Source of the DNA: Nitrospirales bacterium
GTDB lineage: Bacteria > Nitrospirota > Nitrospiria > Nitrospirales > UBA8639
Reading direction: 5' to 3'
DNA: 64,000 nt
Assembly (NCBI GenBank): GCA_965215405.1
Contig: OZ244060.1
Coordinates: forward strand, 309,833-373,832
The position numbers were made by a program, and so were the translations under genes. The notes beneath the pieces were generated by a model. It was not told the origin of the DNA. It ran no database searches and saw only the letters and a list, made by a program, of their open reading frames with translations. Below are positions 1 to 33,099 of this stretch, in pieces (position 1 is the stretch's first letter; each line of letters starts with the position of its first letter).

Positions 1-258
1 GCCATAAAACACGATCCTGGGATTGATCAAGACCGTCTCTTGAAAGGCATCCTCGCCTTCACATCGCATCACAACGAGTTGTTCCGACCGTGACACCTGG
101 GGAGCCGCCAACCCGATCCCATCGTTCTCGGACATCGTTTCAAACATATCGTCGATAAATCGTTGATAGGCGCGCGTGGGGATGATCGACGGATCAACCG
201 GCGAGGCGATTTTCCGCAAGACAGGATTCCCCATTTTTGCAATCGGCAAGGTTGCCAT
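1..258 (-). CDS. def: Peptide deformylase, N-terminal part (gene continues beyond the left window edge)
   Basis: Not in the ORF track because it is open at the edge. Reverse translation from ATG at 258-256 gives MATLPIAKMGNPVLRKIASPVD...MSENDGIGLAAPQVSRSEQLVV, which contains the GxGLAAxQ deformylase motif. GGGAGA Shine-Dalgarno just upstream. Confidence 0.85.
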   Translation of the reverse strand, partial: MATLPIAKMGNPVLRKIASPVDPSIIPTRAYQRFIDDMFETMSENDGIGLAAPQVSRSEQLVVMRCEGEDAFQETVLINPRIVFYG

Positions 259-323
259 CGTGGTCTCCCTTCAGGCCCACGCGTCAGGGCCTCGTTCTAT
301 CAGAGTCCTCAAAAACCGTATCA

Positions 324-1127
324 TCAGGAAACGGGTTCAGATTGTCGCGTGTTCGGCGGAGCCTGATGCTCCTTCAGGGTTTTATCCCACCATGCCCCCC
401 ATTCTTTGGCCCACGCGATTCGCTGCTCATGAGTCGAGCCTTGCCAATCACGTGGCGGTCCAACCCATCGAGTTAACCGCCAGAACGACTCAAGGGCCGT
501 GAGGGACACATATTTCTCCTGATCAGCCAGCAATTCAATGAGGAGCGACACCGCTTCCGGCCGTCTCACGTGCCGAGACCCAAAAGCCACGGCTCGCCGA
601 ATGGTATCCTGCTCATCCTTCACCAACTCCTGCAACGTTGACAGCGTCTCCATGGGTGCCAGCCGGATGGCCACGCGAAGGGCATGAGCCCGCACCCTCG
701 TGACTTCCCCGCTGTCCTTCGCCGTGTCGAGCAAAGCCGGCACGGCTTGTGGATCTTTAATAATCGACAGCGTTTCAATCGCATTATAGCGAAGTCGGCT
801 CCCAGGCAGTTTGAGGGCTTTCACCAGGACCGGCACGACCGGTTTTCCCAGGTGTACGAACTCAGCGATCACGTACAGTTCCTGCCGTCCTTCCAATAAA
901 GGCAACAAGGCTTCTGCCCGTTTCAGTTCCTTTTCAGAAAGGACTTCCGGAGCAGGGGTGGCTTGTTCGATTTCAGGAAATTCCGGCTGGGGTGGGGCAT
1001 CATAGGGGACTTGGACCGGAATAAGAGAAGCCGATCGAGAACCCGTTGCGCCAACGTCCGCCAGGGAGGACGACACACAAAGGAGGGTGCTGCACCCCAC
1101 CATGGCCCATACGATACCGACTCTCAT
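324..1127 (-). CDS. Exported HEAT/PBS-lyase-like repeat protein
   Basis: 267-aa ORF with a hydrophobic N-terminal signal (MRVGIVWAMVGCSTLLCVSSS). Repeated helical units with motifs such as PVLVKALK, RYNAIETL, AVPALLDTAKD and RVRAHALRVAI, typical of HEAT repeats. Confidence 0.6.
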   Translation of the reverse strand: MRVGIVWAMVGCSTLLCVSSSLADVGATGSRSASLIPVQVPYDAPPQPEFPEIEQATPAPEVLSEKELKRAEALLPLLEGRQELYVIAEFVHLGKPVVPVLVKALKLPGSRLRYNAIETLSIIKDPQAVPALLDTAKDSGEVTRVRAHALRVAIRLAPMETLSTLQELVKDEQDTIRRAVAFGSRHVRRPEAVSLLIELLADQEKYVSLTALESFWRLTRWVGPPRDWQGSTHEQRIAWAKEWGAWWDKTLKEHQAPPNTRQSEPVS

Positions 1128-1220
1128 ACGCCCTCTCCTTTTCCAGGAAATGATGAACGCTCCGTTCTTTCAGTCTAGTGTGTTCCCCTTGAGTGGGTCA
1201 AGGCAACGCGTCACCGGGTC

Positions 1221-1800
1221 GTGGCTCAGTTTGAAATGACGGCCTCGTCCTTGTTGAAACAAGGCCAAAAGAAACGGAGACCGGACAGGAAAAGAAATTC
1301 AAACGGAGCCACTCCCGAAAAAAGTCCGGAAGCCCTTGACTCCGGTAAGCGGTTGCCCCTCACCCGGCCTGACAACGGAAGGGGAACAGTTTCTGCCCGC
1401 CCAGGAAGCCCCGGTGGGCGCCGTTGAAGACTCTACCTCCCCTCACCCCTCCTTACAAAGGAGGGGGAAAGAAAGTCCGAACCTCCATCAGATGCCACTC
1501 GCCCCGATTGACAAGGCCGAGGAAAGGGAGAAAAAACCTCCCCTTTGTCAGGGGAGGAAAGGTGGGGGTGAGCCTCCCGCCTATGAAACCCCGGGGCACC
1601 GTTGAAGACTCTACCTCCCCTTACCCCTCCTTACAAAGGAGGGGAAAAGACTAAGCCTCCCCTTTGTAAGGGGAGGGAAGGAGGGGTAGAGCCTCCCGCC
1701 TATGAAACCCCGGAGCACCGTCGAAGACTCTACCTCCCCTGGCCCCTCCTTACAAAGGAGGGGAACAGTTTTTGTCCGCCCATGAAGCCCCGGGGGAGCG
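1221..1800. repeat. Interspersed repeat cluster, locus 1 (A-type element with extension 1221-~1385, then B-type nested palindromes incl. two tandem ~120-bp units 1535-1654 and 1655-1774)
   Basis: GTGGCTCAGTTTGAAAT...AAATTCAAACGGAGCCAC (1221-1312) recurs at 31318-31406 (inverted), 37442-37533 and 58671-58762. CCTCCCCTTTGTAAGGGGAGG / CCCCTCCTTACAAAGGAGGGG hairpin arms recur at all five loci. Confidence 0.9.
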
Positions 1801-2172
1801 CCGGGCGGCGGCGTTGGACGCACGTTCATGGATCGGGGACAGGAACGAGCAACGGGCCGGTCGCTCCACGCTGCTCATAACCGGATGGAGCATTGATCAC
1901 AACGTCACCATTCTTTAATCTTGGTCCTGTAAATGTTAGAATCAACGATTGAGTCATCATTGTAAACGTTCTGACGGAACGAGGGGCCGCGTGTCATCCT
2001 CGCGGGCTCCCTCCCGTCATCCTCGCAGGGTCCCCGATAACGCGCGTCGGGGACAGGGTCAGCGTGGCTCCGGGCCTTTCTCCTCTGCCTTTCATTGGGG
2101 CGGACCCGCCTGGAACAACGCCCTGGATTCCCGATTCACGCCGTCGGGAACGGCAGGGGGAGACAGCGGAAA

Positions 2173-2201
2173 TTGTCAACGAATGAGTGAACACGTACAA
2201 T
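2173..2201 (+). promoter_or_regulatory. Candidate sigma70-type promoter for the cupredoxin-like gene
   Basis: TTGTCA (2173-2178), 17-nt spacer, TACAAT (2196-2201). It lies ~40 nt upstream of ATG 2243, which has an AGGGGGAG Shine-Dalgarno. Confidence 0.4.
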
Positions 2202-2242
2202 CATGACGTTCATAACGATTTTATAGGGCAAAGGGGGAGCAT

Positions 2243-3154
2243 ATGAAATCCGTGATATTTCTCCTTGGCCTGGGATTGGCGATCGGACTGAGCACAAACC
2301 CAGGCTGGGGATACGAACAAAGCGCCGTATCCAACGGCGGAACCTTACAGGGAACAGTCAAGTTGCTCGGAGAAGTCCCCAAACCCAAGGGGTACAACCT
2401 CGTCACCTTGCCGGACGCAGTGTACTGCGGCCGCATCTCGACCGGAACGGGCTGGCGTCTGCTTCAACCCTTTGTCATCGGCCCTCAGGGCGGATTCAAA
2501 AACGTGGTCATTTACATTGGCAGTATCCACAAAGGGAAACCCTTCAGCTACGTCACGCCCAGGATTGAGGCGATCGACTGCAAATTCGAGCCGTATATCA
2601 CCATCGTTCGAGACAAACACGACGTCGAAGTGGTGAACATGGACCCGGTCTTTCATGATATTCAAGGATACGAAACCTCGAAGTTCGGAGCCCGAGTCCT
2701 CTTCAACGTTCCCTTGCCAATGAGCAAAAAACTGCAAAAAGAAGCCTTGCTTGCCGGCAAGACGGTCAAAGATCGAGCAGGCGAGGTCTTGACCCAACGC
2801 ATCAAAATGGGAAAACAGCGAAATCTGTTTGTAATGCAATGCGGATTTCACGCCTACATGGAAAGCTGGGGGTTTGCGGTCAAAAATCCCTACTACGCAC
2901 TCACGGCGAAAGACGGCTCGTATTCCATAACGGATATCCCGCCAGGAACCTATACGGTACAGGTCTGGCATCCGATGGTTCGCAAAGAATATACCGTGAC
3001 GATCAATCCCAACGACGTCACGGAACTGCAGATTGATATCGACGCGCCGAAGGGCCGACTCTACGCCAACGAAATCAGCGAAGGGACCCGCTTCGGAATG
3101 GAATTGCTTGGGGCCGCCACCATTAAACCCATTGTGGAACGCCAAACCTATTAA
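2243..3154 (+). CDS. Exported cupredoxin-like (putative type-1 copper) protein with C-terminal carboxypeptidase-regulatory-like beta-sandwich
   Basis: Signal peptide MKSVIFLLGLGLAIGLS. VEVVNMDPVFHDIQG supplies a His and QCGFHAYMESW gives a C-x2-H-x2-M ligand spacing as in amicyanin-type blue copper sites. The C-terminal DGSYSITDIPPGTYTVQVWHP is CarboxypepD_reg-like. Confidence 0.55.
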   Translation: MKSVIFLLGLGLAIGLSTNPGWGYEQSAVSNGGTLQGTVKLLGEVPKPKGYNLVTLPDAVYCGRISTGTGWRLLQPFVIGPQGGFKNVVIYIGSIHKGKPFSYVTPRIEAIDCKFEPYITIVRDKHDVEVVNMDPVFHDIQGYETSKFGARVLFNVPLPMSKKLQKEALLAGKTVKDRAGEVLTQRIKMGKQRNLFVMQCGFHAYMESWGFAVKNPYYALTAKDGSYSITDIPPGTYTVQVWHPMVRKEYTVTINPNDVTELQIDIDAPKGRLYANEISEGTRFGMELLGAATIKPIVERQTY

Positions 3155-3307
3155 GAGATCGTAACGGATTCCAGGTGCCGCGGTTCCGGAATCACCACGT
3201 CTTGACTGATAAGGAAGCCGCACAGGAGGTTCTTTTCGCCGGATTGCAGGCGAGGAGTCACCCTCTCCCGTCGTAAGGGGCAAGGGCACTGGGGAGGAGA
3301 TGGGAGC

Positions 3308-3715
3308 CTACGACAACCAGTTTTCCACGGAGAGGCCGGGGACCCCCTGGAAGTATTGGGGACGGGCGGAAACTATCGTGAGGTCCCGAACCAGCGCAAT
3401 GGCAGCAATACGCAGAGACGCCTCACTCACCGGTGTTCCCTGCCGCGCCGGTAACGCCCTTATTTCGCCGTAACGCCTCGCGGCCGAGGCATCGAAGGGC
3501 AGGATCTGCAGATTAGAGATGAGCCGTGTTTCGAGCTGACTCAGCAAGGCAGCCGAACGCTGACCCATACGGCACGCGCCGGCGCTCAACTCCCCAAGCG
3601 TGATGCTGGAGGTGAATTGATGCTCGGGAGGCACAGAGGCCAATTTTGCAATCAACGCGGTCGAGGGACAACGGCCCATCAGGTTGCTCAGAATATCCGT
3701 ATCCAGCAGGTACAT
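3308..3715 (-). CDS. vapC: PIN-domain protein, VapC-type toxin (possibly catalytically degenerate)
   Basis: MYLLDTDILSNLM N-terminus and the ...LRIAAIALVRDLTIVS... core are typical of VapC. Its start overlaps the stop of the upstream antitoxin gene (ATGA at 3715). Confidence 0.8.
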   Translation of the reverse strand: MYLLDTDILSNLMGRCPSTALIAKLASVPPEHQFTSSITLGELSAGACRMGQRSAALLSQLETRLISNLQILPFDASAARRYGEIRALPARQGTPVSEASLRIAAIALVRDLTIVSARPQYFQGVPGLSVENWLS

Positions 3716-4017
3716 CAGTCTTTCCTTTCAGCGTGACAGCCGGCGTCTCCGCCTCGCTCGGCATGGACGTCGGCAAGCAGAGAGTCCATATCCCGGTCTT
3801 CCACTTCATCCCAGGCACCGGCCAGACCCAAAGCTCCCAGGGAATCGGCAGAGGTCGTCTGCTTCTGCTCCATCAGCGCGAGAGCATCCACGCTGACCAA
3901 TGCCGCCAGGGGCTTGCCCCTTCTCTCAATGATAACGTGCTGGCCGCTATCCACCACATGGGACAGAAGAGCCGAAATTTCTTTTCTTAACTGTACAGTA
4001 CTGACTCTTTTGACCAT
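3715..4017 (-). CDS. Phd/YefM-family antitoxin
   Basis: MVKRVSTVQLRKEISALLSHVVDSGQHVIIERRGKPLAALVSVDALALMEQ matches the Phd/YefM N-terminal fold pattern. Acidic C-terminal tail. Translationally coupled to vapC. Confidence 0.8.
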   Translation of the reverse strand: MVKRVSTVQLRKEISALLSHVVDSGQHVIIERRGKPLAALVSVDALALMEQKQTTSADSLGALGLAGAWDEVEDRDMDSLLADVHAERGGDAGCHAERKD

Positions 4018-4038
4018 ATTTCACCCTTTTTAACAAAA

Positions 4039-4131
4039 TGTACATAATTGTTATTTATTTCAAATAATTTACATTTTTTCAATAATTATACATATTTATC
4101 ATAATTGTACAATATGTATTGTAATTGTACA
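4039..4131. promoter_or_regulatory. AT-rich array of ~19-20-bp degenerate repeats with TGTACA cores (candidate operator/promoter of the phd-vapC operon)
   Basis: AATT(G/A/T)TACA occurs at 4065-4073, 4084-4092, 4103-4111 and 4123-4131, with an inverted TGTACATAATT at 4039-4049. It lies immediately upstream of the minus-strand start at 4017. By eye this is the most AT-rich stretch of the window. Confidence 0.45.
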
Positions 4132-4209
4132 TTTTTATGGCCGCATGAGGCCTGCGTTGATATCTTCTCTGGCAATAGACACATTATCGACGGTTTTTTG
4201 CAGAAAAGC

Positions 4210-4347
4210 CTATGCATAGAAGATAACGACAGCATTGTTTCGATGCTTTGAGATGGCCTCTAAATGCTCTTTCAGTTTCTTATCAAGCCATCTGACAGGT
4301 TCGCGCTGAGATTGCAACAAGTGCAAAAGGTCGCTCCATGAAGCCAT
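4210..4347 (-). CDS. Hypothetical 45-aa ORF (below the ORF-track cutoff)
   Basis: ATG at 4347 is preceded by a GGAG Shine-Dalgarno and sits 11 nt after the stop of the 65-aa ORF. Translation: MASWSDLLHLLQSQREPVRWLDKKLKEHLEAISKHRNNAVVIFYA. No recognisable family. Confidence 0.3.
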   Translation of the reverse strand: MASWSDLLHLLQSQREPVRWLDKKLKEHLEAISKHRNNAVVIFYA

Positions 4348-4358
4348 GGTTACTCCAT

Positions 4359-4556
4359 TTACTCAATGTGAAAGGTATTTGTCGTCAGAGGACGTTCCGG
4401 GGTGGGAGGCTGATATTGTGTTTCTTCCTCAGCCTTCTGAATCGGCAACTTATACAGCTCGCTCACTTCCACGTATTGCTGGTACTGCTTTTTGACCTCT
4501 TCCAACGTCTTCAGGTAGTCATCCGAGACGTTTTCCATTTCGGTTCTTTCAGGCAT
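4359..4556 (-). CDS. Hypothetical 65-aa acidic protein
   Basis: ORF track; charged coiled-coil-like sequence (DDYLKTLEEVKKQYQQYVEVSELYK). Forms a compact pair with the 45-aa ORF. No family recognised. Confidence 0.4.
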   Translation of the reverse strand: MPERTEMENVSDDYLKTLEEVKKQYQQYVEVSELYKLPIQKAEEETQYQPPTPERPLTTNTFHIE

Positions 4557-4714
4557 GACTGTTCCCTCCTCATTGGCGAAAATCAGTCATAACGCATGGA
4601 AAATTTCAAGTTTCCCCGCCTCAGACGCGGGCGGTCTGAATTTTTCACTCGAAGTGCTAGGTCAACTCGAAGTTGGTCTCTACACGTCCAGAGGTTGTGT
4701 AGAGAAGTAGTGGG

Positions 4715-4870
4715 TTACGCTACGCCAACCCGACCGACGGCTTCGGCCTCTCCCCACACCCGTCGAATCGCCACCTGTATCTTCTTCTCGAAGTGCTCGA
4801 TTAGCTCGCGGTGGCAACAAAGGCTTGCTCGGCTTCGATCCCGGCAATGGTTTGAGGGATATCCGATAAT
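4715..4870 (-). pseudogene. hsdS: 3'-terminal remnant of a type I specificity (hsdS) gene, internally frameshifted
   Basis: Reverse translation gives DIPQTIAGIEAEQAFVATAS* and, in a second frame, RELIEHFEKKIQVAIRRVWGEAEAV...*. This parallels the C-terminus of the intact gene (IVAEIEAEQALVAANRELIERFEKKIRAAIERVWGE, 7313-7450). DNA similarity is visible (roughly three quarters identical by eye). Confidence 0.7.
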
Positions 4871-4919
4871 ATAATACTCACCCAAGGTTCGATACCACGA
4901 ATGAGGGCAGGGCAGTCAC

Positions 4920-4947
4920 TTGCATTTTTACTGAAATCTCCCATAAT
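4920..4947 (+). promoter_or_regulatory. Candidate promoter of the ATPase/Toprim-like operon
   Basis: TTGCAT (4920-4925), 16-nt spacer, CATAAT (4942-4947), ~80 nt upstream of ATG 5029, which has a GAAGGAAAG ribosome-binding region. Confidence 0.3.
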
Positions 4948-5028
4948 GAACGACGCCACTGGACTGGCGACTGAGTAAAAGATGGGGTAACGGGCACATC
5001 TGCGAAATGATCGAAGGAAAGACTGTTT

Positions 5029-6162
5029 ATGTACACAGAATCATCCGATACGGACCTCCATCTTCCTGAACTGTCGATCAAAGGATTTCGTGGAATCGCA
5101 GACCTTTCGATTCCACAGTTGGGCCGTGTGACGCTGATTGCAGGGAAAAATGGAGTCGGCAAGACCACTCTCCTTGATGCCGTCCGCATCTATGCAGCAC
5201 GCGGCAGCAATTTTGCTCTCACGGACGTATTACAGGACAGGGAAGAGCTTATTACTGCGGTTGCCGATGAGGACAGTGAAGAGTTATCAGCTCCTGATTT
5301 TGGGGCTCTCTTCCATGGCCGGAGCCTCTCGCCAGGGTCTCTCATATCAATAGGCCCTAATAGCGAAACAAAGCGACTCACCATCAGGGTTAGCCCGAAT
5401 TTGCACAAACCTGATATTTCCTCAACGAGTGATAAACCGTTACTTGAGATCGAATTTCAAGGTAAAAAAGAAGAGATTTTTATAGTCCCATGGCTTCCCT
5501 ACCGTGTACCACGTCGCATGCCGCAGGCTCACGAATCCAAGCTCCCACCTGCAATTCGATGTGAATCTTCAGGGCCGAGTTTAATGGACAACGAAAGCAT
5601 AGCGGGATTCTGGGACAGTGTAGCGCTTACGGATTATGAAACCCAAGCAGTACAGGCATTGCGATTGGTCTATGGCGACGAAGTAGACCGTGTTGCAATG
5701 GTTGGGGATGAAAAACGACCTCACCCGATCTATAATCGCCGCGCACTCTATGGCCCACTCTATGGTCGCCGGGCGGTCGTAAAGATAAAAAAGCAAGAGC
5801 GACCAGTTCCTTTGAAAAGCCTCGGTGACGGAGCCGTGCGCCTGTTCGGTGTCGCCTTGGCTCTTGCCAACAGCAAAGGCGGTTTCCTGGTTATCGACGA
5901 AGCTGAAAACGGTGTCCATCATTCGGTACAGCCCGACTTCTGGAAGATGATTATGCGAACGGCACACGATAACAACGTGCAGGTTCTCGCTACAACTCAT
6001 AGCTGGGACTGCGTGGCGGGTTTTGCACAAGCGGCAATAGATTCAGAGGAAGTAAACGGAGTTCTTATTCGCCTCGAGAAGGACATCGACGGAATTCGCG
6101 CCGTAGGATACTCTGAAGACAACCTCAAAGCCGCAGCCAAGCATGGTATCGAGGTCAGGTAA
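5029..6162 (+). CDS. ABC/SMC-like AAA ATPase (AAA_15/AAA_21-type; AriA / AbiLi / RloA / OLD-ATPase-like)
   Basis: Walker A GKNGVGKT; signature-like SLGDGAVRLFGVALAL; Walker B GFLVIDEAENGVH; H-loop ATTHS. The N-terminal ELSIKGFRGI is typical of RecF/SMC-like ATPases. Confidence 0.85.
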   Translation: MYTESSDTDLHLPELSIKGFRGIADLSIPQLGRVTLIAGKNGVGKTTLLDAVRIYAARGSNFALTDVLQDREELITAVADEDSEELSAPDFGALFHGRSLSPGSLISIGPNSETKRLTIRVSPNLHKPDISSTSDKPLLEIEFQGKKEEIFIVPWLPYRVPRRMPQAHESKLPPAIRCESSGPSLMDNESIAGFWDSVALTDYETQAVQALRLVYGDEVDRVAMVGDEKRPHPIYNRRALYGPLYGRRAVVKIKKQERPVPLKSLGDGAVRLFGVALALANSKGGFLVIDEAENGVHHSVQPDFWKMIMRTAHDNNVQVLATTHSWDCVAGFAQAAIDSEEVNGVLIRLEKDIDGIRAVGYSEDNLKAAAKHGIEVR

Positions 6163-6165
6163 TAT

Positions 6166-6795
6166 ATGGCTTTTCCCGGATCGGCTCCACCAGCCTCTCG
6201 CGTTCTTTTAGTCGAAGGACAAAACGACAAGCACGTTGTTCGGAATCTTCGCGACCGTCATCAACTCATGACAGATTTTGATATTCAGGATAGAGACGGC
6301 CTTGACCCACTGCTCGAAACCGTTGGTGCCGAGCTAAAGGTTCCAGGCCGTCAGGCCATCGGTATACTCGTGGATGCAAACGATGATTTGACTGCACGTT
6401 GGCAATCTGTCATTCATCGACTTTGGAAAGAGGATATCACAACGCCCCCGCAACCCGATCCCAAGGGAACGGTCATAGACACAATCGGAAAACCCCGCGT
6501 CGGCATCTGGATAATGCCCGATAATAAGTCAAGCGGAGAACTTGAAAAGTTTGTCGAGCAAATGATCCCTGACAGCGATCCGGTGTGGCCGTTGTCCCAG
6601 CACTACATCAACAAAATTCCTGTAGAAAACAGAAGGTTCACACAGACGAAGACACTACGAGCGAAGATCTATGCCTGGCTGGCGGCCAGAGAGGACCCGA
6701 GGCAAATGGGTTCCGCTATTGGCTCGCACGATTTGAACGTTGACGGCGTTCTCTGTCAGAACTTCCTTGGTTGGCTTAAGGCACTGTTCGCGTAG
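6166..6795 (+). CDS. Small Toprim-like protein (DUF4435 / DUF3226 / DUF4276 / RloB-type candidate), partner of the ATPase
   Basis: RVLLVEGQNDKHVV supplies a Toprim-style Glu and AIGILVDANDD a DxD-style acidic cluster. The start lies 3 nt after the ATPase stop. Confidence 0.65.
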   Translation: MAFPGSAPPASRVLLVEGQNDKHVVRNLRDRHQLMTDFDIQDRDGLDPLLETVGAELKVPGRQAIGILVDANDDLTARWQSVIHRLWKEDITTPPQPDPKGTVIDTIGKPRVGIWIMPDNKSSGELEKFVEQMIPDSDPVWPLSQHYINKIPVENRRFTQTKTLRAKIYAWLAAREDPRQMGSAIGSHDLNVDGVLCQNFLGWLKALFA

Positions 6796-6972
6796 GATCC
6801 GTCTCCGCTGGTGCACGTCTGTCATTTTCTTCCCGCACTCATGCCGATGGCCGCCTATATCCTGCCCCCATACACTACTCCATCAACTCCCGGTTAGCCG
6901 TGACAAGGGTTTACCTGGCGTCGGGCTCAAACGGGCATGGTCTGTTACGCGGCAAGAAAAATGAGGACAATC

Positions 6973-7131
6973 TCATTTTTCAGCAAATTTCCGTACGGCC
7001 TTCGGCACAAAAGCTGCCACCAGGAAATACAAGACGAGTTCAGTCTTGTTTCCGTTTGATCCCCACCCGAATACTTCCACAGTCGCCAAAAATCCAGCAA
7101 AAATCAATGACAACGGGGACATTAGTCGCAT
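6973..7131 (-). CDS. Possible 52-aa two-helix membrane peptide downstream of hsdM-S
   Basis: Internal ATG of the 88-aa ORF: MRLMSPLSLIFAGFLATVEVFGWGSNGNKTELVLYFLVAAFVPKAVRKFAEK. Two hydrophobic segments. Weak ribosome-binding context. Confidence 0.3.
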   Translation of the reverse strand: MRLMSPLSLIFAGFLATVEVFGWGSNGNKTELVLYFLVAAFVPKAVRKFAEK

Positions 7132-7258
7132 AGACGACGGATTCCCTTGATCATCCGATAGAAAGGTTTGCAATTGTTTGGGGCAGGGCCGCGTGTCTGA
7201 GATTCGCTCACAGCAAGTCCTCCATATTGACCACGTCAATAAGGCTCACAGCCTTACG

Positions 7259-7280
7259 TTGAGAAACTATTGTTTCTCAA
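7259..7280. other. Perfect 9-bp inverted repeat hairpin just downstream of the hsdM-S stop
   Basis: TTGAGAAAC-TATT-GTTTCTCAA. No U-tract follows, so its function (terminator or binding site) is open. Confidence 0.35.
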
Positions 7281-7312
7281 GCCGCACATCCAAGCCATAG
7301 AACACAAGCTAA

Positions 7313-9805
<2,493 letters not shown>

Positions 9806-9920
9806 GGGATTTCTTCAGCGCGAACCGCTGACCAAACGATCACGTCCATCCCGCCAGTGAGCGCCGATGCCGATCTCGTCGCGATTGTCGGTCAACGCGT
9901 TGATCATCTTGCAGACGAGG

Positions 9921-10379
9921 TCAACGTTTCGGTGCAGTCGTCGCCACCTCGATTTCGTCCGCAAAGCCGTCTTCTCCTAAATACAGGGCTTTGCAGCCCG
10001 GAACATTTAATATCCCGTCGGCAAACCTGCGATCCGCCGTGACCAATACGGATTCCGTCGTTTCGGCGCAGGCAAGATAGAGACAGTCGTAAATCGGGCG
10101 ATCAAGATCCTGCGCAATCCGCGCCGCACGCGCCACGAGGGTATGAGCTGGATACAGCCTGACGATCTCACTCAAATGTAAAAGTTCATCCACGTATGGC
10201 CTGGCATCTTGAAGCTCGTTCAGGCGGACTTTTTTCCAGATAGTGTTGGCGAACTCGGCCGGCAGGACATCGGGCGCGTGCAGTTCGAGATGGGGGACAA
10301 GCAATAGACGGGATTCTTCGGACAGCGACTCGGGTACAAACCATTTGACGACAACGCTGGCATCGACGGTCAGCTTCAC
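9921..10379 (-). CDS. vapC: PIN-domain toxin (VapC/FitB-like)
   Basis: MKLTVDASVVVKWF start, IYDCLYLA and LVTADRRF acidic positions. Overlaps the upstream antitoxin stop by 4 nt. Confidence 0.85.
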   Translation of the reverse strand: MKLTVDASVVVKWFVPESLSEESRLLLVPHLELHAPDVLPAEFANTIWKKVRLNELQDARPYVDELLHLSEIVRLYPAHTLVARAARIAQDLDRPIYDCLYLACAETTESVLVTADRRFADGILNVPGCKALYLGEDGFADEIEVATTAPKR

Positions 10380-10609
10380 CTGTCTCGATCTTCTCGCAAC
10401 AGCTCGACGCTGTCGGTTTGGGGCCCGTCAGCCATGCCGGCAATCCGGCGCGTTCTCTCTTGAAAGTCGGCGATGCTGACGCGGCGGCCAACCTGATGCG
10501 TCAGCACGTAACGAACCTCCGCTTCCAGCGAACGCTGGTTGGTCTTCGCCTGCGCCTTCAACGTTTCAATCACGTCGTCATCAAGGTTACGGATTGTTAT
10601 ATTTCCCAT
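10376..10609 (-). CDS. Ribbon-helix-helix antitoxin (FitA/VapB-like)
   Basis: MGNITIRNLDDDVIETLKAQAKTNQRSLEAEVRYVL is the canonical FitA/Arc-type RHH N-terminus. Coupled to the PIN gene. Confidence 0.8.
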   Translation of the reverse strand: MGNITIRNLDDDVIETLKAQAKTNQRSLEAEVRYVLTHQVGRRVSIADFQERTRRIAGMADGPQTDSVELLREDRDR

Positions 10610-10695
10610 AGTCCGTTCTCCTGCCTGGGGGACTTCAATATGACAGCATATTGCCAGCGAAAAATCAACAAAAATGCAGATGACCTGTAACTATG

Positions 10696-10812
10696 GGGCT
10701 TCGGGCGTCGCGTGTCCGAGATGACATTGGTGTCAAGAAGATACATCCGTTCACTCGAAACTCATCACTGCGCGATAGTGGTGCCTGGTGCGTGTGGCAC
10801 ACAGACGAATCA
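10696..10812 (-). pseudogene. Scar of an older vapBC pair (antitoxin tail plus first 17 codons of a PIN toxin)
   Basis: Reverse strand: ...AVMSFE* then, 5 nt later, ATG (10746) MYLLDTNVISDTRRPKP. Similarity is lost after that point. It lies directly after the hsdR stop. Confidence 0.5.
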
Positions 10813-13335
10813 TTATGCTGCAAACTGATTCAGTGAGACGTAATCTTTGACGTACTCGGGAATAAGCGCACGGTATTCCTTCGGTACTGCCCGGTAGTCC
10901 TGAGTGGAAAAGACCGGAGAAGTGGCCAGGCTGGCGAACTGCCGCTCGTCGATGATCTCGCGGGTGTAGCGGTCGGTGGTGTATGCCTTGAAGTAGGTCT
11001 TGATGGCCGGGATGGAGTCTGCCCGTGCCGGCACGTGGTCGACGACAAATTTGGCAAATTCCTCTTCCAGCAGTTCGTCCCTGGATTTGAAGCGTGGGAT
11101 GACGTCAAAAATCTTTTCCAGAATCTCACGCAGGTTCAGCCGGCGGTCCGCGGCGGTGGCACGGCGCAGCTTGTCGAGGGTGTAATATTCCTCGGGCTTG
11201 TCGAAGACCTCTCGATTGACGTAGTCGATGACGTGGTCCCATTGCCCGGCTTCGACGGCCTTTGCAATGGTTTCGTTGTCTCGCACCGTGGACGCAAACC
11301 TGTCGAAGAACATCCGGTCGATTTTCATCCCCTCCGGACCGATGGGCTGTTCGACGATTCCTTCGAGGCTGTCACGACCCAGATGTTCGTAGTTCCAGGA
11401 GGATGGGGGCAGGTCCGGGCCGGCGGTGCCTTGCCTGGCCCGAGGCCGTGGCAGATCCAGAACTTCGTCGTAGTTGAACCCTGTCTCGAAATACTCGCAG
11501 TTGGCGAAGAAATCGAAGAGCTTGTATGCGGTCTTTTCCGACGAACCGACGTCCTTTTTCAAGGCATCATCCCGCAGCAATTCCAGGAAATCGTGCCTGC
11601 GCGTGCCGCGACCCTTGATCTGAATGAAGTCGGTGGGTGAGAAAACAGGCCGGAACATGCCGAGATTCAGGATATCGGTACAATCATAACCGGTCGTCAT
11701 CATGCCGACCGTCACACAGACACGGGCCTTGCTCGTCTTGTAGTCGGACCGGAAGTTGCCCGAGCCGAGCAGGTTGTTATTGGCAAAGTTAATGGTGAAC
11801 TGCTGAGCGTGGGGTACGTGCGAGGTGACCTGCACGGCAAAATCCGACTGGTACTTCCCAGGGAACAGGCGGTCAGCCATCTGATTGAGGATTTGGGTCA
11901 GCCTGGCCGCGTGGTCCTGACTGACGGCAAAAACGATGGATTTGCCGACCTCTCCGCTGATCGGGTCGCGCAGGGCATTCTCAAGAAAGGTCTGACAAAA
12001 CAGTTGGTTGGTGTCTTCGGCAAAGAAGCCTCTCTCGAAATCGCGCTGCTTGTAGGTTTTCCGTTCCTCCTCGCCGCTGTCATTGGTGAACGATACCACA
12101 AAACCCGCTTCTGACAGGAGTTGGGTGGTAACTTCCGTACGCGCGTCCACCACTGTGGGGTTAATCAGAAAGCCGTCCTTTACACCGTCGAGCAGTGAGT
12201 AGCGAAAGGTTGGCTCTCTGTTTTCGCAGCCAAAGGTGCGATAGGTGTCCAGCAGCAGCCGACGCTCGGTCTCGCGCGGGTCGGCGGCACTGGCATGATC
12301 TCTGCCTTTGAGATAGTCGCGGGGCGTGGCGGTCAGGCCCAGCTTGTAGCCGACGAAATAGTCGAACACGGCCCGGGCATTGCCGCCGATTGAACGGTGC
12401 GCCTCGTCGGAAATCACCAGGTCAAAGTCCGTGGGGGAGAAAAGCCGTTGGTATTTATTATTGAACAGCAGAGCCTGGACCGTGCTGACCACGATTTCGG
12501 CCCGCCGCCATTCGTCTCGCTTCTCTTTGTACACGACCGTCTGAAAGTCCTGGGACAGCAGGGCCGAAAAAACCTTTTTTGCCTGTTCTTCCAGTTCAAG
12601 GCGGTCCACCAGGAACAGCACACGGCGGGCATTGCCGGAACGCAGAAACAGCTTGACGACCGCTGCGGCGGTGAGCGTCTTGCCCGTTCCGGTCGCCATC
12701 TCGAACAGAAAGCGGTCTTTACCGTCCCGTACCGCCCGTTGCAGGGCATGGACGGCTCTAAGTTGATAGGAACGCAGAAAGCGTAACCCGTTGGCCTGGA
12801 TGAAGCCGGGGCGCTCGTCTTCGTTCTTCCAGGCTGCCTCGGATGCGTAGCCGGGCCGCTGGGTGAGCACGATGTAGTCGTCTCCGACCCGCTCATCAAT
12901 CAGGCGCTGGGGCTCGGGCGTAAACGTCTGGTAGCCGGCCATCGAGTCTGGCGTCGGGAACGCGGGGATGGGGCACGGGTTGCCGCGCTCCAGGTCCCAG
13001 AAATAGTGCAGATTTCCGTTCGAGAGTATAACGAAGCGGCAGTGCTGCGAGCGGGCGTACTTACGGGCCTGCTCTTTGCCAACCAGCGGATTCTTGTCCT
13101 CGGCTTTGGCCTCCAGCACGATGAACGGGAAGCCCTTGGCGTCGAGCAGGAGGAAGTCGATAAAGCCCCTGGTGGCGTTCTCGAAGTTCTCACCCAGGGC
13201 GTCCAGGTCGGACTCCTTGATCGTGACGTTTGGTTCGAGACAGACGTTGGGGGGGTTGTCTCCCTCTGCGAAGAAACGCCATCCGGCTGCTTCAAGCCGC
13301 TTGTTGATCTTTATGCGGGCCGTTGCTTCGTTCAC
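10813..13335 (-). CDS. hsdR: Type I restriction enzyme R subunit (nuclease + SF2 helicase/translocase)
   Basis: N-terminal PD-(D/E)xK-like IDFLLLD...IVLEAKA; helicase motifs MATGTGKT and LVISDEAHRS; 840 aa. Confidence 0.92.
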   Translation of the reverse strand: MNEATARIKINKRLEAAGWRFFAEGDNPPNVCLEPNVTIKESDLDALGENFENATRGFIDFLLLDAKGFPFIVLEAKAEDKNPLVGKEQARKYARSQHCRFVILSNGNLHYFWDLERGNPCPIPAFPTPDSMAGYQTFTPEPQRLIDERVGDDYIVLTQRPGYASEAAWKNEDERPGFIQANGLRFLRSYQLRAVHALQRAVRDGKDRFLFEMATGTGKTLTAAAVVKLFLRSGNARRVLFLVDRLELEEQAKKVFSALLSQDFQTVVYKEKRDEWRRAEIVVSTVQALLFNNKYQRLFSPTDFDLVISDEAHRSIGGNARAVFDYFVGYKLGLTATPRDYLKGRDHASAADPRETERRLLLDTYRTFGCENREPTFRYSLLDGVKDGFLINPTVVDARTEVTTQLLSEAGFVVSFTNDSGEEERKTYKQRDFERGFFAEDTNQLFCQTFLENALRDPISGEVGKSIVFAVSQDHAARLTQILNQMADRLFPGKYQSDFAVQVTSHVPHAQQFTINFANNNLLGSGNFRSDYKTSKARVCVTVGMMTTGYDCTDILNLGMFRPVFSPTDFIQIKGRGTRRHDFLELLRDDALKKDVGSSEKTAYKLFDFFANCEYFETGFNYDEVLDLPRPRARQGTAGPDLPPSSWNYEHLGRDSLEGIVEQPIGPEGMKIDRMFFDRFASTVRDNETIAKAVEAGQWDHVIDYVNREVFDKPEEYYTLDKLRRATAADRRLNLREILEKIFDVIPRFKSRDELLEEEFAKFVVDHVPARADSIPAIKTYFKAYTTDRYTREIIDERQFASLATSPVFSTQDYRAVPKEYRALIPEYVKDYVSLNQFAA

Positions 13336-13534
13336 GTGCTTCCCTGTCGATTATCGTTCTGGCCCTGACTGATTGAAACAGCCCTCTTCCCGAACGCATG
13401 AGGCCCGTTCAGGGCCTTGAGCCGTGACGCGCCACGACAAAGACACCATGGCATCTTATGGAAAGTGACGATCTGCTCCTTCTCCGCTGGCTCACCACCG
13501 GAGCCTGCCGCGGGGTTGCCCGTTGAAAGTCCGT

Positions 13535-15010
13535 TCAGGGCAGCGAGGCGGAAGCCGTCAATGAGACGAGTGGCCACGGATACAGCCCGAATATCACGAC
13601 CCCAGCGACGGCAACGGCCAACGCCACGGTCGCGGTCGGGGACAAAGCCAGGCGCGTTTCGCGCTCTGGGTCGGACGTCGGTTCTCGCATGTACATGACC
13701 ATCACGACGCGCAAATAGTAGAACGCAGAGACTGCCGCAAAGATCAACCCGACCACGGCCAGCCAGGTCAGGCCGGCATTCACCGCGGCCATAAACAGAT
13801 AAAATTTTCCTATGAATCCGGCAGTCGGCGGAATGCCCGCGAGCGAGACCATAAAGAGCAGCATCAGAAACGCCGCGCCCTTGTGGCGTTTGGCTAAACC
13901 GGCGAAGTCGTCCAAGTCTTCTCCTTCACAATCCCCTCGTCGAAGAATCGCAACAAGGGTGAACGCCCCAAAGGTCATGAAGGCATAGACGGCCAGATAC
14001 AGCATCATGCCGGACACGCCTTTTGCCGACGCCCCGGCTTCGGTTCCGACCCATCCCGCCACGACCAACCCGATCAACGCGTAGCCGGCGTGAGCAATGC
14101 TGGAGTACGCCAGCATACGCTTCACGTTCGTTTGCACGATCGCCACGAGGTTCCCCAGGATCAAGGTCAGGACACACACGCCCAAAATCAGTCCGCTCCA
14201 ATTCGGTTTCATGCCTCCAAAGCCTTCAAGCATCACCCGAAGGAACGCCCCGAAGCTCGCGGCTTTTGACGCCACGGCCATAAACGCGGTCACCGACGTT
14301 GGCGCGCCTTGATACACGTCCGGTGTCCACATATGAAACGGCACGGCCGACACTTTGAATCCGAACCCCACAATTACCAGCGTCAGGGCAATGAGTATCA
14401 TCGAATCGTCAAGGCCCCGCGCGCCGATCACCGCGGCAATTTCTACCAGACGCGTGCTGCCGGCGGCTCCAAAGATGAGTGAAATGCCGTAGAGCAAAAG
14501 GCCCGACGAAAACGCTCCTAAAATAAAGTACTTGGCCGATGATTCGACGGACCGGGCTTCAAATCGCTTGAAGCCCGCCATCACGTAGAGCGGGATGGAC
14601 ATCAACTCGATGCCCAGATAGATGACCAACAGGTCGGCACCGGAGACCATGATCAGCATTCCGGTCAGGGAAAGCAGCACGAACCCGTAGAATTCGGCCA
14701 GATCCATCCGCTCTTCCTTGAGATACCCGATGGAGAGCAGGATCGTCATGCCACTCACGACGTAGAGCAACAGTTTCCAAAACGAGGCATACCTATCCAC
14801 CACCACGAGATCGCTGAACGCATAGACCCGGTCACCCAGGCTGCTCGCCGTGACGATGAAACACACCGCGAGCGTTGCGAGACTCATCCATGCCAGCAGA
14901 TCTTTCCTGGTCGATGGAGTGACGGGCTCCAGTACCAATAAGAGGCAGGCGACGAACGCGACGATCAACTCCGGGGCAATCGTTACCAGATCCGCGAGAG
15001 GAATCGTCAT
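13535..15010 (-). CDS. nuoN: NADH-quinone oxidoreductase subunit N
   Basis: 491-aa polytopic antiporter-like protein, last gene of the nuo operon, overlapping nuoM by 4 nt. Confidence 0.9.
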   Translation of the reverse strand: MTIPLADLVTIAPELIVAFVACLLLVLEPVTPSTRKDLLAWMSLATLAVCFIVTASSLGDRVYAFSDLVVVDRYASFWKLLLYVVSGMTILLSIGYLKEERMDLAEFYGFVLLSLTGMLIMVSGADLLVIYLGIELMSIPLYVMAGFKRFEARSVESSAKYFILGAFSSGLLLYGISLIFGAAGSTRLVEIAAVIGARGLDDSMILIALTLVIVGFGFKVSAVPFHMWTPDVYQGAPTSVTAFMAVASKAASFGAFLRVMLEGFGGMKPNWSGLILGVCVLTLILGNLVAIVQTNVKRMLAYSSIAHAGYALIGLVVAGWVGTEAGASAKGVSGMMLYLAVYAFMTFGAFTLVAILRRGDCEGEDLDDFAGLAKRHKGAAFLMLLFMVSLAGIPPTAGFIGKFYLFMAAVNAGLTWLAVVGLIFAAVSAFYYLRVVMVMYMREPTSDPERETRLALSPTATVALAVAVAGVVIFGLYPWPLVSLTASASLP

Positions 15011-31701: not shown

Positions 31702-33099
31702 TCACTCTCTGTTCGGGAAATTCGGGTGGAACGGAAACGTTCGGCTCCAGATCTTTCCCTTTCCTGGCACGTACTGGCCGGTTCGGATACGGTCGACGTC
31801 GTAATCCGGGAGCGGGATGGCCCTCATGCAAAAGAGGAACTCTCTAAAGGGCCAACGAAAGCTGAAGTCCAGATTATCGAAACCATGCGGTTTGCGGTCG
31901 TCGGGAAGATCGTTGGCGTCAGCGGGGATGACGTGTACAAAGAACGGGGGCTTGATATCCGCCGGCGTGCACGGCTCCTTGAAGTAGATTAACCTGTCTC
32001 TGAGGAGGTAGACGTCGAAGTCGGAGCGGACGACCGGGGCGCCGACCGTCCCGGACACGATTGACGAGTAAAGTGCCCGATACTCAGAGCCGAAATACTC
32101 GAAGAACACCAACCCGATACTGCCGGCCATGACCAGGGAGCACATTGTCAGCAAGAAGGGAGTCCGTATGGCCGGCCGGTTCAGGCCGGCAAAGGATACC
32201 CGAAAGCTCGCCGGCCCCCGTCCCCGAACGCCCCGGGCCAGCCAGAGTTCCCCCGAATAGAACAGGCAGAGAAGTCCGAACAGATACTCCTTCACCTCCA
32301 TCAAATCGTGCGAGTCATGGGACACGTTGATATACGAAGAAGCCAGCACGAGCGTCACGGTTGCCCCAGCGACCATGAACAACCTGGGTTGTCTGGAAAG
32401 CAAGGAATAGATGACAAAGAGAAAAAGCAGGATTTTGGCTCTGCCGGAAACGAAACTTGGGTCGAAGAACATCTCCCACCCAACCGGGCCACGATAGGCT
32501 ATCCAGTAACTATCCATCACCAGGAAGCCGAACATCAGCGGTAGTGACGGTACTGGAATCCCGAGGACCGTGCGTTGCCGGCAGAAGAAAGCGGCGCTGG
32601 TGACGAGGCACAACAGGACTGGTCCGAAATCGACGACCTTGAGAACTAACTTTACTAACGTTAGGTTAATATTGTGAACATTGAATTCGTCCTGTGTATT
32701 CACCGTCTTGAGGAATTCCGGGGTGGTAAACCCGAAGAGACGCTGCCCCCAACTGATTTCTTCGCCTGCGCCGAAGAGCAGGGCCAGACCACCGAGAAGA
32801 TAGAGACCGCGCCGAATCCCCTTGTCTGCCGAAGCCGTAACGAATAGCAAGAGGCCCGCCACGAGGAGAAACCCCGCCGTGAGATTCTCTACCCAGTAAT
32901 CTTCTCGAGTCAGCAAAAGGATGCGTGACGGGTCGGCCACGTTGAGATAGGCGAAGAATAAGACGTTGAGGCACAGGCAGAGGAACCCGAAGACAGCCAG
33001 GCGGCTGTCGAGGCCGGGGTCACGCGCGGGCGTGGAGGGGGGGGGGGGGGGGGATGTATATCGGAACCCATGATTCTTCCTCTGTTCAGCCTTTGGCAA
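31702..33099 (-). CDS. Polytopic membrane protein of unknown function with a C-terminal soluble domain; 5' end contains a 17-nt homopolymer
   Basis: 465-aa ORF with many hydrophobic segments. The track start is a TTG without a good Shine-Dalgarno. A well-placed ATG (33071) with a GAGG Shine-Dalgarno is out of frame at the present tract length. Confidence 0.6.
   Translation of the reverse strand: MPKAEQRKNHGFRYTSPPPPPSTPARDPGLDSRLAVFGFLCLCLNVLFFAYLNVADPSRILLLTREDYWVENLTAGFLLVAGLLLFVTASADKGIRRGLYLLGGLALLFGAGEEISWGQRLFGFTTPEFLKTVNTQDEFNVHNINLTLVKLVLKVVDFGPVLLCLVTSAAFFCRQRTVLGIPVPSLPLMFGFLVMDSYWIAYRGPVGWEMFFDPSFVSGRAKILLFLFVIYSLLSRQPRLFMVAGATVTLVLASSYINVSHDSHDLMEVKEYLFGLLCLFYSGELWLARGVRGRGPASFRVSFAGLNRPAIRTPFLLTMCSLVMAGSIGLVFFEYFGSEYRALYSSIVSGTVGAPVVRSDFDVYLLRDRLIYFKEPCTPADIKPPFFVHVIPADANDLPDDRKPHGFDNLDFSFRWPFREFLFCMRAIPLPDYDVDRIRTGQYVPGKGKIWSRTFPFHPNFPNRE
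33037..33053. repeat. 17-nt homopolymer (G on plus strand, C on the coding strand) in the first ~20 codons of the membrane-protein gene
   Basis: Counted directly: G run 33037-33053. It encodes S-PPPPP-S in the track frame. Confidence 0.95.

Follow-up and report, generated by a model that had tools for sequence, protein, structure and literature searches.

In the PARIS system, an ATPase controls the release of a Toprim tRNA nuclease, and PARIS is often located near restriction-modification (R-M) genes or in their place (PMC11464382). HEC-01, which is composed of an ABC ATPase and a DUF4276 protein, protects Escherichia coli from phage (PMC12881386). The PDC systems are a set of 145 untested candidates, compiled from genes that lie inside BREX, DISARM and type I R-M loci ('guilt-by-embedding'; Payne et al. 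2024 preprint, doi 10.1101/2024.01.29.577857). PDC-M38 is one of these, and in that work it is found only in Table S8, as two-gene cassettes. The present study concerns a pair of adjacent genes, encoding an ABC-type ATPase and a smaller protein, in a stretch of DNA from a Nitrospirales bacterium (contig OZ244060.1, positions 309,833 to 373,832). That whole stretch, 64,000 nt in length, was analysed and is referred to below as the window. Profile matches identify the pair as a clear member of the catalogued PADLOC candidate PDC-M38 and of the Pfam family DUF3226. On balance, the pair is probably a self-contained module for defence or abortive infection, mobile by horizontal transfer and belonging to the class of ABC ATPase plus nuclease effector systems that includes OLD, Gabija, PARIS, AbiL and HEC-01/Mad3-4.

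The pair and its junction are located as follows.

5029..6162, + strand: gene for the ABC-type ATPase, PDC-M38A family, 377 aa
6166..6795, + strand: gene for the DUF3226 protein, PDC-M38B family, 209 aa
6151..6168, + strand: gene junction, comprising GAGGTCAGG, the ATPase stop codon TAA, a 3-nt spacer and the DUF3226 start codon ATG

Both open reading frames (ORFs) had been identified in an earlier note made from the sequence of the window. They are present at 5029-6162 and 6166-6795, and the motifs quoted in that note (GKNGVGKT, FLVIDEAENGVH and ATTHS in the ATPase, LLVEGQNDKHVV and ILVDANDD in its partner) are all found in the translations. Judging from the Pfam and PADLOC matches, and from the many homologues of the small protein, these are genuine genes rather than chance ORFs. 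The gap between them is only 3 nt (TAA at 6160-6162, TAT, then ATG at 6166), and the purine-rich sequence GAGGTCAGG is situated at 6151-6159, just 5′ of the second start codon. For these reasons the two genes look like a translationally coupled operon. A promoter scan, of a kind that may not apply to the host phylum, revealed no convincing sigma-70 promoter directly upstream of the ATPase gene, and an Rfam scan of positions 1-14000 of the window found no family.

The ATPase matches the Pfam families AAA_15 (8.4e-21) and AAA_21 (1.2e-17). The PADLOC PDC-M38A model, PDLC04611, is matched at 1.4e-78 over residues 13-377 of 377 and profile positions 3-383 of 383. Weaker, partial PADLOC matches were obtained to AbiLi (4.7e-45) and AriA (2.2e-22), and also to mad3, HEC-01A and GajA, and the OLD protein TsOLD (6p74) was matched at 2e-06. 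NCBIfam contains no specific model for either protein. In PHROGs the ATPase matched families of unknown function only, and its partner matched none. The motifs expected of an ABC-type ATPase are present, viz. Walker A (G39-x-N-G-x-G-K45-T46), the signature LGDG (G266/G268), Walker B (D290-E291) and the H-loop (T322-T323-H324). In an alignment of 57 homologues the Walker A motif, the signature LGDG, Walker B and the ENGxH that follows it, Q318, the H-loop ATTH324 and a C-terminal IEVR tail are all conserved at 97% or more, while residues ~60-250 constitute a hypervariable insert. A conserved engine combined with a variable insert has been described in the literature for the sensor ABC ATPases of defence systems (e.g. 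PMC11464382).

The smaller protein is a member of DUF3226 (PF11536), which it matches at 6.7e-52 over residues 12-208 and profile positions 2-207 of 208, with a score of 176.7 bits as compared with a gathering cut-off of 27. The PADLOC PDC-M38B model, PDLC04624, is matched over the same residues (2.8e-45), and no other PADLOC match was obtained. Homologues are numerous: a word-indexed search yielded 908, and an exhaustive profile search yielded 3,860 clusters (at 50% identity) with E values of 1e-3 or below. The best 150 representatives are all stand-alone proteins of 145-274 aa. An N-terminal alpha/beta core (residues ~8-136) is followed by a helical C-terminal part (~140-209). Acidic residues are placed at the ends of strands in the core, E17-G18-x-x-D21 after strand 1, D70-A71-[N/D]72 after strand 3 and M-P-D119-N120...G-E125-L-E127 after strand 4. 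In the alignment of 57 homologues E17, D70 and E127 are invariant (57/57 each), and N120 (56/57), E125 (54/57, 95%) and D21 (53/57, 93%) are nearly so. Thus, Pfam and conservation agree with the earlier description of an ABC-type (AAA_15/21) ATPase accompanied by a small partner with Toprim-type acidic motifs. The profile searches proposed in the same note gave AAA_15 and AAA_21 for the ATPase and DUF3226 for the partner, PDC-M38 in PADLOC, and no match to DUF4435, DUF4276, RloB or AriB.

Assignment to PDC-M38 is based on full-length matches of both the A and the B model to genes that are adjacent, on the same strand and in the order A then B; the setting in a defence locus is also that of the candidate. 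The pair is, therefore, already catalogued, and any PADLOC run would flag it. The main texts of the searchable literature contain no mention of DUF3226, PF11536 or PDC-M38, the list of partner domains for AAA_15/21 ATPases in the PARIS paper does not include DUF3226 (PMC11464382), and the link between DUF3226 and Toprim is undescribed in the searchable literature.

The distribution of the pair was assessed in a scan of one genome per species, in which 589 relatives were confirmed. Counts of pairing and of neighbours refer to the best 80 of these 589 loci. The ATPase gene is immediately upstream of the DUF3226 gene, on the same strand, in all 80, with ATPase identities of 42-69%. The 80 loci derive from Chloroflexota/Dehalococcoidia, Latescibacterota, Nitrospirales, Binatia, Acidobacteriota, Alpha- and Gammaproteobacteria, Spirochaetia and Entotheonella, and many are from sponge-associated metagenome-assembled genomes (MAGs). 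The pairing is also retained in very distant members with 21-33% identity, which include plasmid versions and five of five IMG/VR viral contigs, and it holds down to a partner identity of about 25%. The co-occurrence across genomes that the earlier note had suggested examining is thus strict over more than 90 loci. No homologue of the DUF3226 partner was found in the GenBank phage collection.

Several of these loci are on small replicons or in prophages. The pair is practically the sole cargo of a 6.4-kb mobilizable ColE10 plasmid of Citrobacter and the main cargo of ColRNAI plasmids of ~4.17 kb, which account for most of 133 matching Klebsiella records. The latter is a very common cryptic plasmid of K. 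pneumoniae. In one 4,166-bp representative (NZ_CP138687.1, L099) the annotation divides DUF3226 between two ORFs (693-896 and 265-708), and a frameshift is possible. On an Acinetobacter plasmid the pair adjoins BrnTA, in Plesiomonas it follows the gpD end of a P2-like prophage, and in the viral contig L097 it is found between a type IIG R-M enzyme and baseplate/tail-fibre genes, a typical prophage accessory hotspot. From these data, and from the neighbourhoods described below, we conclude that the pair is probably an autonomous mobile cassette, which often lands, or is retained, in defence hotspots.

The same plasmids bring to mind a selfish addiction or exclusion module, in which a toxic nuclease would be restrained by the ATPase in the manner of a toxin-antitoxin system, so that it would mainly stabilise plasmids or islands instead of giving protection from phage. 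The limited cargo of the Citrobacter and Klebsiella plasmids and the proximity of BrnTA in Acinetobacter are consistent with this proposal, as are the location of the pair between two PIN toxin-antitoxin pairs in the window, the Pfam description of AAA_21 as a putative AbiEii toxin and the many loci that appear to be 'solo' insertions amid housekeeping genes. Addiction does not, however, exclude abortive infection or defence. The adjacency to R-M and Hma genes and the placement in prophage accessory hotspots point to defence, and the closest named relatives are all antiphage systems. Of the alternatives to a defence module this one survives best, but we consider it unlikely.

Assignment of a nuclease function to the partner depends on its fold. 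Toprim domains are defined by a Glu after strand 1 and a DxD motif after strand 3 (PMC12065111). Their core is a three-layer alpha/beta structure whose four parallel strands have the sheet order 2-1-3-4. AlphaFold2 (AF2) models of the DUF3226 protein, with pLDDT values of 78 over the full length and 85.6 for the core, have the strand/helix order b-a-b-a-b-a-b-b. In these models E17 comes after strand 1 and D70 is at the end of strand 3, where Toprim domains have their Glu and DxD, respectively.

Further data were provided by HH comparison of a deep DUF3226 profile (Neff 4.9) with a small OLD-Toprim alignment. The probability was 81.5%, with a P value of 1.1e-5 and a score of 40.7, as compared with 12.0 +/- 1.9 (maximum 16.6) for 100 column-shuffled templates and 16.1 for a reversed template. 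The comparator was pieced together from relatives of the P2 Old Toprim and from TsOLD and GajA fragments taken from PDB alignments, because few homologues were recovered: a search with the P2 Old Toprim fragment yielded 5 proteins, and a scan of viral contigs yielded close Old relatives only. P2 Old, TsOLD, GajA and the DUF3226 protein have almost the same motif I, LLVEGxx[D/E], and E17 was aligned with the Toprim Glu of the other three. The D70 motif was aligned with ADCD of P2 Old, in a low-confidence extension of the HH alignment only.

Matches below the Pfam thresholds are in keeping with these results. OLD-like_TOPRIM was the sole recurrent secondary family, in 20 of 30 close homologues (best E value 0.006), and for two of three divergent plasmid members the secondary matches, also sub-threshold, were all to families of the Toprim clan (PF01751, PF20469, PF24395). 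No curated Toprim model in Pfam was matched above threshold, the Toprim-clan matches having E values of 0.006-0.13 only, and sequence and profile searches of the partner against all PDB chains gave no Toprim or other meaningful match. In Foldseek searches the full-length model produced weak, mixed matches only; use of the core model alone gave better ranking, with significance not improved. In the PDB library the Toprim domain of RNase M5 (6z2b) was joint top (probability 0.84, TM 0.54, E value 0.079), and Toprim primases occupied ranks 1-3 in BFVD, with E values of 0.026-0.065.

Taken together, these data make it quite probable, if not proven, that DUF3226 has a Toprim-type fold and active site, and the N-terminal core (~8-136) is probably a Toprim-like domain. 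The Toprim fold that the earlier note ascribed to the partner is thus probable only: the conserved acidic motifs, the HH match with its clean shuffle controls and the Foldseek ranking speak for it, all Foldseek E values being 0.026 or higher. DUF3226 was also considered as a close cousin of DUF4276, given the ELExF shared by eye, and this was not supported, as HH probabilities were 0.7-1.3% with both shallow and deep profiles. In a calibration, DUF4276 itself gave 0.4% against the OLD alignment, which indicates that the HH set-up is insensitive to distant Toprims.

It is unlikely, slightly more so than an addiction module, that the DUF3226 protein is instead a flavodoxin-like adaptor or regulatory subunit without nuclease activity, the effector activity residing in the ATPase or in a host factor. 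Foldseek cannot tell Toprim from lumazine-synthase, CheY and other flavodoxin-like folds, the DxD is degenerate (68% of homologues have Asn at position 72), and curated Toprim models are not matched above threshold, all of which such an adaptor would accommodate. On the other hand, E17, D21, D70, N120, E125 and E127 are all conserved at 93% or more and are placed at the ends of strands, like the residues of metal-dependent Toprim sites. In the HH comparison the match with OLD motif I far exceeds its controls, and Toprim proteins are top or joint top in both structure libraries.

The relationship of the pair to R-M systems can be assessed from its surroundings in the window and from the 80 loci. 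The neighbouring features in the window are as follows.

3308-4017, - strand: Phd/PIN toxin-antitoxin pair (PIN plus Phd/YefM), upstream of the ATPase gene
3838..4912: window-specific segment, AT-rich in part, separating the Phd/PIN pair from the ATPase gene
4749..4845, - strand: remnant of an hsdS 3′ end ('scar'), ~80% identical to the intact hsdM-S 3′ end
7313..9805, - strand: HsdM-HsdS fusion gene of a type I R-M system (N6_Mtase 2.9e-48; Methylase_S 1.2e-48, two stretches)
9921..10609, - strand: PIN toxin (9921-10379) and FitA-like ribbon-helix-helix (RHH) antitoxin (10376-10609)
10813..13335, - strand: HsdR of the type I R-M system (HSDR_N plus ResIII helicase)

The HsdM-S fusion is a protein of 830 aa, with an N6_Mtase and two Methylase_S domains, and the pair is convergent with its gene, as had been noted previously. 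The pair is not, as also claimed, inside the R-M locus; it adjoins hsdM-S on the downstream side, and the module actually enclosed by hsdM-S and hsdR is the PIN/RHH toxin-antitoxin pair at 9921-10609.

Neighbours were counted by clustering flanking ORFs and annotating the clusters with Pfam. Recognisable defence genes, R-M and Hma systems among them, were found within 10 kb of the pair in at least 23 of the 80 loci; this is a minimum, as the count covers recurrent clusters only. Four loci (L009, L025, L043 and L051) have, convergent with the pair as in the window, a type I R-M of the same HsdM-S-fusion type, and a distantly related type I R-M in L062 brings the total with any type I R-M within 10 kb to 5/80. 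Eco57I-type enzymes, Dcm, Schlafen/AlbA_2 and HEPN proteins were found at 4 loci each. In the Chloroflexota MAG L043 the 3′ end of the DUF3226 gene overlaps that of the convergent hsdM-S gene by a few bases (10629-10633), an unusually tight packing.

In about 9 of the 80 loci the pair is inside operons of a DUF1156 methylase and a HEPN-DUF499 protein (Hma/MADS-like). At L065 (5526-14040), and similarly at L021, L022, L024, L036, L064, L072 and L077, it is situated between the DUF1156 methyltransferase and the HEPN_Swt1-DUF499 ATPase. Since this is the slot of HEC-01/Mad3-Mad4, the DUF3226 and DUF4276 partner types may, these loci suggest, be interchangeable there.

Two Nitrospirales MAGs (L009 and L011) are syntenic with the window; orf2243, the Phd/PIN pair and the genes for the ATPase and DUF3226 share 73-76% DNA identity with their counterparts there. 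In L009 a type I R-M system is located 3 kb downstream; in L011 an Eco57I-type enzyme is in its place. Between phyla, the R-M genes are better conserved (HsdR 74-80%) than the pair (ATPase 54-69%), and this incongruent divergence argues that the R-M genes and the pair are not simply one travelling unit. The link of the pair to type I R-M is, by these comparisons, facultative rather than obligatory.

The last observations bear directly on the proposal, made in the earlier note, that the pair serves as a dedicated backup of the flanking HsdR/HsdM-S. As a guard of that system it would sense anti-restriction proteins of the Ocr, Stp or ArdA type that disable HsdR/HsdM-S, and would respond with abortive infection, for which PARIS and PrrC are precedents. 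The guard model is in accord with the complete type I R-M that the pair adjoins and faces in the window, with the recurrence of the same HsdM-S-fusion arrangement in Nitrospirales, Binatia and Chloroflexota MAGs (L009, L025, L051 and L043), including the overlapping 3′ ends in L043, and with the original discovery of PDC-M38 as embedded in R-M, BREX or DISARM loci. However, type I R-M is within 10 kb in only 5/80 loci, the same R-M type being found in 4/80, and the syntenic locus L011 retains the pair with a different R-M. Most of the nearest neighbours are housekeeping genes, and the pair is also the main cargo of 4-6 kb plasmids without R-M. The partner, moreover, is not DUF4435/AriB, and HsdR and the ATPase differ in divergence. 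The dedicated backup is thus not borne out, and a guard of this kind is doubtful. Equally doubtful is a more far-reaching scheme, in which DUF3226 would be an unrecognised branch of Toprim nucleases, forming with its compact ABC ATPase a further split OLD-like class, the insert of which would sense anti-restriction or anti-defence proteins, so that the pair acted as a portable guard of whichever R-M or Hma system it adjoined. Were that scheme true, a split OLD-like DUF3226 class would be common both on enterobacterial ColE1-type plasmids and in uncultured bacteria, largely those associated with sponges and sediments.

A housekeeping DNA-repair pair analogous to RecF (an ABC ATPase) and RecR (a small Toprim protein) is very improbable: the N-terminus of the ATPase does match RecF and SMC models weakly, and the partner is about the size of RecR, but the RecF match (TIGR00611, 6.3e-08) scores 32 bits against a cut-off of 172, the G+C content is below that of flanking core genes, and the patchy distribution over many phyla at ~50% identity, the variable neighbourhoods and the occurrence on small plasmids and in prophages are not those of the conserved housekeeping operon that the earlier note had held would speak against its reading.

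The interpretation favoured here is, accordingly, that of a self-contained defence module. It takes account of the operon structure, the conserved ATPase motifs, the invariant acidic residues at Toprim positions, the pairing, the patchy distribution and the facultative R-M/Hma placement, all of which were computed in this study. In the mechanism proposed, the ATPase would dimerise or oligomerise via its ABC head, its hypervariable insert would sense a cue of infection, and the ATPase would hold or activate the DUF3226 protein. The latter would be a metal-dependent, Toprim-like nuclease which, once triggered, would cut tRNA or DNA, stopping phage replication or host growth. Formation of a complex, nuclease activity of DUF3226, its substrate, the trigger and protection from phage are inferred here, with PARIS and HEC-01 as precedents.

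A number of observations weigh against this interpretation. With respect to the fold, the confident core of the HH match comprises only ~29 columns (strand 1 plus helix 1), no Foldseek match was significant in the two libraries searched (best E values 0.026-0.08), and generic flavodoxin-like folds tie with Toprim proteins in the PDB library. The second Asp of the DxD motif is mostly Asn, position 72 being Asn in 39/57 homologues and Asp in 16/57 (motif D-A-[N/D]). With respect to named relatives, no match of the partner to DUF4435 (Pfam), RloB or AriB was obtained, the PADLOC AriB search yielding none at E<=1, and no relationship between DUF3226 and DUF4276 was found by HH. The genes closest to the pair on its two sides are for the most part housekeeping genes, and pairwise identities of the ATPase and its partner correlate weakly (r = 0.21), the divergence being star-like. 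Finally, the searchable literature contains no experimental test of any PDC-M38/DUF3226 member.

The remaining features of the locus can be described briefly. The two PIN toxin-antitoxin pairs (3308-4017 and 9921-10609), the R-M genes and PDC-M38 make up a defence/toxin-antitoxin island of ~10 kb, which is limited by a carboxypeptidase-regulatory-like gene on one side and by nuoN on the other. The G+C content of the pair region is 0.48-0.53, as compared with 0.56-0.61 for the nuo genes, which confirms the impression, first gained by eye, that the pair is less G+C-rich.

The scar at 4749-4845 duplicates the hsdS 3′ end (7341-7441) with ~80% identity, and its - strand reads ...IEAEQAFVA...ELIEHFEKKIQVAIRRVWGE. 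It is contained in the segment 3838-4912 (~0.9-1.07 kb), which has a G+C content of 0.386 at 4001-4500, three direct repeats of ~20 nt at 4073-4131 and small unannotated ORFs without Pfam matches (e.g. 4359-4556, - strand). The earlier note had the pair flanked by an hsdS scar and the intact hsdS end. The scar is real; it does not, however, bracket an insertion of the pair. Insertion of the pair into hsdS, leaving the scar, was rejected, since the syntenic MAGs L009 and L011 both carry the pair yet lack the scar-bearing segment. For the same reason, segment 3838-4912 looks like a separate insertion or a recombination relic.

A homopolymer of 29 nt (8464-8492, G on the coding strand) is located exactly at the HsdM/HsdS junction, where it is translated as a poly-Gly linker; none of the four related R-M loci (L009, L025, L043 and L051) has it. 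The homopolymer may serve as a phase-variation switch, uncoupling S from M by slipped-strand events, or may mark an assembly-fragile site. A second long homopolymer, G17, is present at 33037-33053. Positions 1022-2208 have no counterpart in L009. They include a tandem repeat at 1537-1765 (a 119-nt unit x1.9, 91% match) that carries internal palindromic CCTCCCCTTTGTAAGGGGAGG motifs, and this stretch may be a repeat or an element resembling a miniature inverted-repeat transposable element.

In the window, the pair marks a variable defence/toxin-antitoxin island with the nuo operon on one side and a housekeeping gene on the other. Validation of PDC-M38 would enlarge the ABC-ATPase/Toprim immune systems by a large family and would give DUF3226 a function. 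Beyond the catalogue, the present analysis adds a reasoned and controlled link of DUF3226 to OLD-type Toprim motif I, and candidate catalytic residues in the partner (E17, D21, D70, N72, D119/N120, E125 and E127) and in the ATPase (K45, D290/E291 and H324). It adds, too, the existence of versions on enterobacterial plasmids, which are directly testable in E. coli.

The split-OLD/PARIS/AbiL-like designation of the earlier note is correct as to the broad class and does not extend to any of the characterised systems. Tests of the partner domain fail for textbook PARIS, AbiL, Mad3/4 and the classical OLD nuclease, and all of these were rejected. PARIS likewise consists of two genes, for an AAA_15/21 ATPase and a separate small effector, of Toprim type in PARIS and probably so here, and the ATPase of the window matches AriA models (2.2e-22, partial). 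PARIS is characterised, in addition, by its response to Ocr-type anti-restriction proteins and by cutting of tRNA-Lys. The partner is DUF3226, in contrast to the DUF4435 of PARIS, and the proteins are smaller, 377 and 209 aa as opposed to a 55-kDa AriA and a 35-kDa AriB (PMC11464382). The suggestion of a compact subtype was thus well founded, PDC-M38 being its own family. AbiL is also a two-gene operon, and AbiLi is the best named-system match of the ATPase (4.7e-45, in two stretches, the best of which is C-terminal, 248-377); the partner, however, matches neither AbiLii nor DUF4435 models.

HEC-01/MADS Mad3-Mad4 (ABC ATPase plus DUF4276) resembles the pair in architecture and in size (395 and 192 aa), and HEC-01 is embedded in Hma (DUF1156/DUF499) systems, the slot occupied by the present type of pair in ~9/80 loci. 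The partner motifs are collinear, LLEE / DQD / RELEAF in HEC-01 corresponding to LLVEG / DAND / GELEKF in DUF3226. The two differ in that the present partner has no Pfam DUF4276 match and an HH probability of ~1% to DUF4276, and the regions that the HEC-01/Mad3-Mad4 ATPases have in common with the present ATPase are the P-loop and the signature/Walker B only. The OLD family (P2 Old, TsOLD and GajA of Gabija) combines an ABC ATPase with a Toprim, as the pair probably does, and has a nearly identical motif I; OLD and GajA carry both domains on a single chain of 530-600 aa, whereas those of the pair are in two separate ORFs. For the C-terminal helical domain of DUF3226 and its MPDN...GELE motif no counterpart was detected in OLD, PF20469 being matched below threshold only. 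Compared with the catalogued PDC-M38, the pair exhibits no structural difference: that candidate was defined on RefSeq genomes, and the present locus, with 74-76% DNA identity to the MAG L009, represents it in an uncultured, Nitrospirales-like bacterium.

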